Shown: piece after piece, positions 58,058-59,786 of the stretch | Position numbering within the stretch: the first letter of the stretch is position 1 | How the letters are laid out: each line of letters begins with the position of its first letter | Source of the DNA: an uncultured Candidatus Saccharibacteria bacterium | GTDB lineage: Bacteria; Patescibacteriota; Minisyncoccia; Phycocordibacterales; UBA12088 | Reading direction: 5' to 3' | Assembly (NCBI GenBank): GCA_964521185.1 | Contig: CAZFRC010000002.1 | Location: 7,779 to 71,778, forward strand | Length of the DNA stretch: 64,000 nt | Program-made: the position numbers and the translations under genes | The notes under the pieces: model-generated | What the model saw: only the letters and a program-made list of their open reading frames with translations | Database searches by the model: none | What the model was told of the DNA's origin: nothing

Positions 58058-59517
58058 TTTTGTTAGAGTTTGATCCTAGCTCAGGATGAATGCTGGCGGC
58101 GTGGATAAGGCATGCAAGTCGAACGGGTCGCAAGACCAGTGGCAGACGAGGTAGTAACACGTAGGAACTCACCCCAAAGTCGGGTATAGCTCGCCGAAAG
58201 GCGGGGTAATCCCCGATGTTGTGGAGACACCAAAGAAGCAATTCGCTTTGGGAGAGGCCTGCGTAATATCAGCTTGTTGGTGAGGTAATGGCTCACCAAG
58301 GCTATGACGTTTAGGGGAGCTGAGAGGCTGACCCCCACCGAGGGAACTGAGATACGGTCCCTACATCTACGGATGGCCGCAGTCGAGAATATTCCGCAAT
58401 GGGCGAAAGCCTGACGGTGCGACGCCGCGTGACTGATGAAGCCCTTCGGGGTGTAAAGGTCTTTTATGAGGGAAGAAGTTATTGACATTACCTCATGAAT
58501 AAGGGGCTCCTAACTCTGTGCCAGCAGGAGCGGTAATACAGAGGCCCCAAGCATTATCCGGAATCACTGGGCGTAAAGGGTGTGTAGGTGGTTATGTTAG
58601 TCTTTCGTTAAACCCCTCGGCTTAACTGAGGATCCGCGAAGGAAACGGCATAACTTGAGGATGTGAGAGGTACGTGGAACTCTAGGTGTAGGGGTGAAAT
58701 CCGTTGATATCTAGGGGAACACCGAATGCGAAGGCAGCGTACTGGCACATTCCTGACACTGAAACACGAAAGCGTGGGTAGCGAATGGGATTAGATACCC
58801 CAGTAGTCCACGCCCTAAACGTTGCTCGCTGGCTTCAGGGAGTATCGACCCTCTCTGAGGCGAAGCTAACGCGTTAAGCGAGCCGCCTGGGTAGTACGAA
58901 CGCAAGTTTAAAACTCAAAGGAATAGACGGGGACTTGCACAAGCGGTGGATGATGAGGCTTAATTCGTCGGTAAACGAAGAACCTCACCAAGGTTAGAAA
59001 TCTAGCTGAACTTTCGCCGAAAGGTGAAGGGCCTTCGGGCAGTTAGACAGGTGATGCATGGCCGTCGTCAGTTCGTGGTTTGAATTGTTCCCTTAAGTGG
59101 GGTAACGAACGCAACCCTTATTGCCTGTTACATGTGTCAGGCGAGACTGCCCCGTTTGGGGAGGAAGGTGGGGATGACGCCAGGTCAGCATGTCCCTCTG
59201 ATACCTTGGGCTGCACTCATCATACAATGGAGCCGACAACGGGACGCAATGGCATAAGCCGGAGCAAATCCTTATAAACGGCCCCCTAGTTCGGATTGAG
59301 GTCTGCAATTCGACCTCATGAAGCTGGAATCGCTAGTAATCGCGGGTCAGCCATACCGCGGTGAATACGTTCTCAAGTCTTGTACTCACCGCCCGTCAAC
59401 TCAAGGGAGTCGGAAGTACCCGAAGTCTCACTTTATGTGGGCCTACGGTAAGTTCGATGACAGGGAGTAAGTCGTAACAAGGCACGGGTAGCGGAAGCTG
59501 TTCGTGGAATTAATCCA
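58058..59517 (+). rRNA. rrs: 16S ribosomal RNA. The 3' end is uncertain; the divergent 515 region and the non-canonical 3' tail are taken up in Part 2.
   Basis: AGAGTTTGATCCTAGCTCAG, GTGCCAGCAGGAGCGGTAATAC, ATTAGATACCC, GCATGGCCGTCGTCAG, and GTCGTAACAAGG. Confidence 0.95.
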
Positions 59518-59786
59518 AATCGGAAAGGTCCTGTTCCAAATGTGAATAAGGACTTACCGGTCGATCTGTCCCTCGATCGAGGACAGAAGGGCAATAGCAT
59601 TGGTCCCTTCACTATGCTCGCTTGTCTATGTAAATAGACAGAGGTCGGATATGCGTACCGGCACTGGTGTTTGAACGGAACAAGAGAGAGGATGGTCTGT
59701 GTGCAGCAACGCGGCTTCGCCATATTAATATGGCGAAGCCGCGTTGTGTTTAGATCGCATTTTTGCTACATTTTCGATACGAATTT

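Follow-up and report, generated by a model that had tools for sequence, protein, structure and literature searches.

A 16S rRNA without the anti-Shine-Dalgarno core in a Parcubacteria genome that shows no Shine-Dalgarno enrichment

Introduction

The 16S rRNA encoded in the stretch of 64,000 nucleotides analysed here (the window) has a normal helix 45 and ends without CCUCC, the core of the anti-Shine-Dalgarno (anti-SD) sequence. This is a genuine observation, and the reading we hold with good confidence is that it represents an inherited loss of the anti-SD in a lineage of the Paceibacteria (Parcubacteria, CPR) whose mRNAs do not use Shine-Dalgarno (SD) pairing. The loss is shared by relatives in the same family and order, and the genes of the genome show no SD enrichment. 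A subset of them carries promoter-like boxes so close to the start codon that the transcripts may be leaderless or nearly so. The genome to which the window belongs is metagenome-assembled, consists of 703,646 bp on 24 contigs, and is 97% complete.

The 16S rRNA gene and its 3' end

The 16S rRNA gene is full-length and single-copy (58058-59519, plus strand; Rfam RF00177, 1359 bits, model positions 1-1533), and a search of the whole genome with its 3' region returned one match only. It is unlinked from the 23S-5S block (42756-46440) and lies 11.6 kb further on. Helix 45 with its GGAA loop, CACGGGUAGC-GGAA-GCUGUUCGUG, is found at 59483-59506 on the plus strand, and the alignment to the Rfam model shows every one of its 10 pairs formed. 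The tail which follows it (59507-59519, plus strand) reads GAAUUAAUCCAAA where the bacterial consensus is GAUCACCUCCUUU; in the same alignment these nucleotides correspond to the last 13 positions of the model, GAUcACCUCCUUu, and UCC is all that remains of the CCUCC core. An earlier sequence-only reading of the window had described exactly this, a normal helix 45 continuing into a tail without the anti-SD, and the alignment bears it out.

The same reading noted that the canonical anti-SD is missing from the next 300 nt as well. This holds over a longer distance: the plus strand has no CCTCC between 59160 and 61098, that is, up to 1.6 kb past the 16S gene (the hit at 59160-59164 is on the minus strand). 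Between the 16S gene and the CCTCC at 61098 there is a tRNA-Ile(GAU) gene (59787-59861, plus strand, found by Rfam and ARAGORN), a tRNA-Leu gene and one protein gene. There is no detached canonical 16S tail elsewhere in the 0.70-Mb genome. The sequence GATCACCTCC occurs twice in the whole genome, but neither copy follows a helix-45-like sequence and both are outside an rRNA context.

Two side observations concern the rRNA genes of the window. The 515 region of the 16S gene (58518-58539) reads GCCAGCAGGAGCGGTAATAC, which mismatches GCCAGCAGCCGCGGTAA, the usual primer target there. The 23S rRNA gene (42756-46215, Rfam) is 3460 nt long as compared to 2925 nt in the model, and because of this extra length it probably carries an intron and expansion segments; the group I intron model RF00028 gives a full-length match below threshold inside it at 45646-45916 (30.3 bits, where the gathering score is 50; E = 4.8e-5).

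Relatives and affiliation

A set of 26 relatives from the family and order of this genome has tails of the type GGA[AU]U[AU]AUUCCAA... or ...UUCAA..., all of them without CCUCC. The family consensus is GGAWUAAUUCCAAYUGGA, and the sequence immediately after helix 45 is kept across genera. The class was sampled with 140 genomes, and a tail could be read in 91 of them; a hand tally gives 29 with CCUCC, 12 with only CUCC and 50 with neither. The class tails that lack CCUCC are many different A/U-rich sequences which diverge widely between families. At the level of the phylum 400 genomes were sampled, and approximately 138 of the 150 tails listed are canonical.

The existence of this tail in other genomes bears on the question of whether it could be an assembly artefact, or whether the metagenome bin contains a 16S pseudogene in decay. 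The genome is after all a metagenome-assembled one in 24 contigs with unlinked rRNA genes. Against this the 16S gene is full-length and high-scoring with its helices intact, it lies inside a 96-kb contig, and independent genomes of the family and order carry the same kind of tail. Furthermore, one public DNA run contains 98% of the sampled words of 58900-61200, although this run may be the source sample and is thus not independent; the genome is present in a hot-spring sample. We regard the probability of an artefact or pseudogene as close to negligible.

The affiliation of the genome was examined by means of a 1176-aa protein, the closest public relatives of which are labelled Candidatus Paceibacterota, Parcubacteria, Patescibacteria UBA2163 and Kaiserbacteria. 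Some relatives of this protein are labelled "Saccharibacteria", and these labels are probably automatic mislabels. The genome lies within the Parcubacteria/Paceibacteria (CPR), which is the affiliation of the anti-SD-less subgroup. It also lies within the group lacking uL1: the uL1 profile (PF00687) has no match in this 97%-complete genome, whereas 14 of 14 control genomes match. In the class sample uL1 was matched in 20 of 141 genomes. Of those with a readable tail, all 13 uL1-positive genomes keep CCUCC, and 62 of the 78 uL1-negative ones are without an intact CCUCC; since the genomes of a class are kin, these counts are descriptive and carry no statistical test.

The processing stem and the trailer

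The 16S gene is flanked by two complementary sequences, TCTCTCTTGTTCCGTTC at 57998-58014 and GAACGGAACAAGAGAGA at 59673-59689 (both plus strand), which form a perfect pairing of 17 bp. The pairing between leader and trailer can be extended to give -63.7 kcal/mol (RNAduplex). The predicted duplex is the usual pre-16S processing stem, and it encloses the 16S rRNA together with a trailer of 166 nt in which CCUCC is absent.

The structure of the 3' region is relevant for a second suggestion of the sequence-only reading, namely that an undetected 3'-terminal intron or processing event supplies the missing CCUCC. In such a model an intron or intervening sequence would be removed from the 3' end and a downstream exon with the anti-SD joined, so that CCUCC is added post-transcriptionally, or the gene would simply have been called too short. 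It is true that rRNA introns occur in this lineage, and the 23S gene of the window has the sub-threshold group I match given above. However, 59200-59900 gives no match to any intron family, even with the threshold relaxed to E <= 1, the stem closes at 59673-59689 around a trailer without CCUCC, and the first downstream CCTCC on the plus strand is found past two tRNA genes and a protein gene. The two copies of GATCACCTCC in the genome both lie outside an rRNA context, and the tail after helix 45 is conserved across genera and shared by the 26 relatives, unlike the boundary of an insertion. This suggestion was therefore abandoned; we find it extremely improbable.

Within the processing stem the trailer is structured (59520-59672, plus strand), and its architecture is kept across the family. 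It contains a hairpin (59566-59586, plus strand) whose palindromic apex, CUCGAUCGAG, is invariant. In 15 sequences of the family RNAalifold predicts 9 pairs for this hairpin, 5 of which show compensatory double changes, and a conserved CUUACNGGUCGAU precedes it in the family sequences. The hairpin with its CUCGAUCGAG apex is probably a processing signal. Public RNA runs share about 0.1 of the sampled words with the stretch. Four metatranscriptomes from four studies gave only contigs of 70-150 nt, which came from conserved 16S parts of other organisms and none of which extended past 59520.

A small hairpin was also considered in the tail itself (UUCC-loop-GGAA, or UUCA-loop-UGAA in other families), and was rejected: RNAfold gives -1.8 to -2.6 kcal/mol (-1.8 kcal/mol in this genome), which is no better than for shuffled sequences, and predicts no fold for 10 of the 27 sequences; in several families the hairpin is not predicted at all. 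One inner pair appears by eye to covary.

A replacement tail combined with a conserved, structured trailer could mean that the 3' end has acquired a new function, for example as a retained 3' extension filling the cleft of the SD helix or binding a protein. The conservation of the tail in the family points in this direction, and so do the compensatory changes in the trailer hairpin and its invariant apex; the conservation in the Parcubacteria of h26, which contacts the SD helix, is moreover unexplained (PMC9297842). But the candidate structure in the tail is the marginal one just described, the tails differ widely among the families of the class, and a conserved trailer structure is what one expects from ordinary rRNA processing signals. 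A new function is in our judgment unlikely. In its most specific form, where the tail and the 166-nt trailer of the family would be kept on the mature 30S and either assume the role of the SD-anti-SD helix or fill its space, or provide a dedicated site for a factor of assembly or initiation that is peculiar to the anti-SD-less Parcubacteria, we consider the idea quite unlikely.

Shine-Dalgarno signals upstream of the genes

The SD signal was analysed at 686 starts, taken as the first ATG of each non-overlapping long open reading frame (a crude longest-ORF rule). Within 22 nt of these starts GGAG is found 48 times (64 expected) and GGAGG 11 times (16.6 expected). One of GGAG, GAGG and AGGA is present at -20 to -4 in 10.8% of the starts as compared to 13.8% of internal-ATG controls. 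The G content at -12 to -6 is 15-18% and has no peak. We considered a hidden subset of genes with a canonical AGGAG at the classical distance, and this candidate was rejected: SD-like 5-mers at -16 to -9 number 29 against 37 expected, and there is no positional peak. Pairing of the upstream regions with ACCUCCUUA is predicted at -2.45 kcal/mol, weaker than the -3.40 kcal/mol of the control.

The same pipeline applied to 50 kb of E. coli K-12 found GGAG 19 times where 1.9 is expected, SD cores at 52% as compared to 6.7%, and a predicted duplex energy with ACCUCCUUA of -5.46 against -2.97 kcal/mol for the control (p = 1e-12). It should be noted that E. coli had to be used as the positive control because CPR relatives which keep the anti-SD are also without SD enrichment. 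With this strongly positive control, the statement of the sequence-only reading that the genes lack SD motifs, which had been based on some 15 genes, can be extended to the whole genome, where k-mer counts, position and duplex energy agree; the genome-wide motif scan which it had proposed as a check found no enrichment across the 686 starts. Its proposal that initiation is SD-independent is supported by the same comparison.

If SD and anti-SD had co-evolved, the mRNA leaders would carry a different, non-canonical ribosome-binding motif that pairs with the new tail. The family-wide conservation of the tail, GGAWUAAUUCCAAYUGGA, suggests that some selection acts on it, and organisms which show binding but have no conserved core have been reported (PMC10783764). 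The counts in the present genome speak against it: the tail complements GGAT, GGAA, TGGAT, GGATT, TTGGA and GGATTA are at or below expectation before the starts (GGAT, GGAA, TGGAT and TTGGA are depleted), and pairing of the upstream regions with the tail of this genome is predicted at -2.10 kcal/mol, weaker than the -2.75 kcal/mol in the control. Nor are the own-tail energies better than control in a genome of the same family (G015) or in one of another anti-SD-less family (G453). The words which are enriched upstream of the starts look like promoters (TATACT, GGTATA) or like stop codons (TAAT, ATAA), not like complements of the tail. Since the complements are not in excess and the own-tail energies are no better than control, there is no replacement SD, and we consider co-evolution of this kind very unlikely.

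Other features of the start region were analysed as well. The frequency of A at -3 is 27-34%, near background, so there is no Kozak-like enrichment of A. The sole strong bias is found at position -1 before the ATG, where the whole genome has T in 46%, C in 26% and G in 9% of the cases, i.e. a pronounced preference for pyrimidines. This bias is alike in operon-first and operon-internal genes and is thus not due to transcription-start context alone.

Promoter-like boxes close to the start codon

The hexamer TATACT is present 43 times within 22 nt of the starts where 2.2 is expected, and GTATAC is enriched together with GGTATA. The first base of TATA[AC]T peaks sharply at -13 or -12. The hexamer then ends 6-7 nt before the A of the ATG, as expected of a promoter that starts transcription at the start codon itself, and such an arrangement was found for a subset of the genes, not for all of them. 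TANNNT at -13/-12 is seen in 18% of operon-first starts and in 3.5% of internal ATGs. Among 428 operon-first genes, strong -10 boxes occur 70 times at -14 to -11 (about 16 expected) and 77 times at -22 to -15 (about 33 expected), and in approximately three quarters of these genes the 22 nt before the start contain no strong -10 box. The E. coli control has no -10 box peak of this kind; the same peak is found in G015 and in G453.

Examples of the leaderless type in the window are TATAAT at 15049-15054 (plus strand), placed 7 nt before the ATG at 15062, TACACT at 47004-47009 (plus strand), at -12 of the ATG at 47016, and TAGAAT at 23709-23714 (minus strand), at -12 of the ATG at 23702. A very short leader is exemplified by GGTATACT, with TATACT at 53716-53721 (plus strand), at -16 of the ATG at 53732. 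The -10 consensus differs somewhat among the genomes sampled: it is TATACT, often as GGTATACT, in this genome and in G015, and TATAAT in other CPR (G276, G453 and G548). In G276 TATAAT peaks both at -12 and at -21/-20.

The clustering of strong -10-like boxes just before the ATG suggests that a fifth to a quarter or more of the operon-first genes have no leader, almost none, or one too short for an SD. This fraction is rough, and probably a lower bound, because the starts come from the longest-ORF, first-ATG rule. Genes inside transcription units are often packed tightly: of 461 pairs of same-strand neighbours, 35 share a 4-nt overlap and 145 are no more than 10 nt apart, which fits translational coupling.

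Translation and assembly factors, and the probable order of loss

Four S1 domains are found in a 394-aa protein of the genome, which is likely to be bS1. It also encodes YbeY, RbfA and RsmA/KsgA, the dimethylase of the GGAA loop of helix 45. Profile searches found no match above the family cut-off for Era and no match for bS21 (PF01165); for these two as for uL1 the failure to find the protein applies to a 97%-complete genome and does not prove absence. The genome locus given alongside the whole-genome searches for uL1, bS21, Era, S1, YbeY, RsmA/KsgA and RbfA is C16:11688-12683 on the minus strand.

Five relatives which keep CCUCC were analysed for SD usage, four from the same class (G414, G503, G548 and G163) and one from another class of the phylum (G276); the relatives were partly sampled. 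SD cores are present at 7-15% of their starts as compared to 13-16% of the controls, and G548 has at most a faint excess of SD-like 5-mers. As these five sampled relatives keep CCUCC and are also without SD enrichment, the disuse of SD probably preceded the loss of CCUCC.

The tail is under a second constraint in organisms with Era, the KH domain of which binds GAUCACCUCC during assembly of the 30S subunit (PMC10582724). The era gene is mostly absent from the Paceibacteria (PMC12641178). Given that the sampled relatives with CCUCC are without SD enrichment and that no Era was found in this genome, both constraints on the tail were probably lifted, after which it drifted. Drift of a tail constrained neither by mRNA pairing nor by Era would be the simplest account of the many different tails in the class. 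The roles of bS1 and Era are what we infer from the presence of one gene and the failure to find the other.

A model for initiation without the anti-SD

The favoured model, an inherited loss of the anti-SD in a lineage without SD pairing, hypothesizes three routes for initiation. Some mRNAs would be leaderless or nearly so, with the transcript starting at the AUG or a few bases before it, and the ribosome would read the 5'-terminal AUG directly. Genes that overlap or abut an upstream gene would be translated by termination and reinitiation. The remaining genes would be served by loading of ribosomes on G-poor leaders, possibly aided by the four-domain bS1. The model proposes that under these conditions the tail is constrained neither by mRNA pairing nor by Era, and that its sequence is free to drift.

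Comparison with known systems

Both halves of this finding have been published for the Parcubacteria. Tsurumaki, Saito, Tomita and Kanai (2022, RNA 28:1041; PMC9297842) detected the anti-SD motif in only 48% of the Parcubacteria, and found that its absence overlaps with the loss of uL1. The anti-SD-lacking genomes of that study have a 16S end without CCUCC(U), as found here, and uL1 was not found in the present genome; nothing essential differs, and the present genome is one further member of the group. The study contains no analysis of SD usage or of leaderless promoters, and the word "leaderless" is absent from its text. The second half is covered by a 2024 survey (PMC10783764) in which Ca. 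Wolfebacteria and Ca. Campbellbacteria are SD-scarce and lack CCUCC, in a group that also includes SR1, endosymbionts of the Flavobacteriia, Carsonella, Hodgkinia and Nanoarchaeia. Its class iv organisms lack CCUCC, and thermodynamics gives no indication that their 16S tail pairs with mRNA. The same is found here, where no excess of pairing is seen between the 16S tail and the region from -25 to -1 of the mRNA, the energies with both the canonical and the own tail being weaker than control. The Parcubacteria of the survey are other lineages, and the present genome adds the position of the -10 box as an indirect signature of leaderless transcripts. Since both halves are thus in print, the finding must be regarded as already known: the loss of the anti-SD is real here but ordinary for the lineage.

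The Bacteroidetes sequester their anti-SD with bS21, bS18 and bS6. Their type of SD-independent initiation, as described for Flavobacterium johnsoniae, likewise concerns genes without SD and needs other features of the mRNA, and the anti-SD is retained (PMC6847099). This is at variance with the situation here, where the anti-SD is gone, bS21 was not found and A is not enriched at -3.

A third comparison is with prokaryotes rich in leaderless mRNAs, i.e. Actinobacteria such as Mycobacterium, Deinococcus-Thermus and many archaea, which share with this genome a -10 box ending 6-7 nt before the AUG. In the leaderless-rich bacteria the anti-SD is retained in its canonical form and leadered genes rely on SD, whereas the present genome is without any anti-SD. 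In the literature searched, no paper was found that ties the loss of the anti-SD in CPR to leaderless mRNAs or promoters, which is no proof that none exists.

Implications

Two modest points go beyond the published work. The sampled relatives that keep CCUCC are already without detectable use of SD, which suggests that disuse came first and decay of the anti-SD later, and promoter boxes are placed where leaderless transcripts would start. Pairing between SD and anti-SD is the textbook mode of bacterial initiation, and lineages which have given up both partners demonstrate that bacteria can do without it. The loss of SD and anti-SD matters for gene callers, and for the expression of CPR genes in other hosts.
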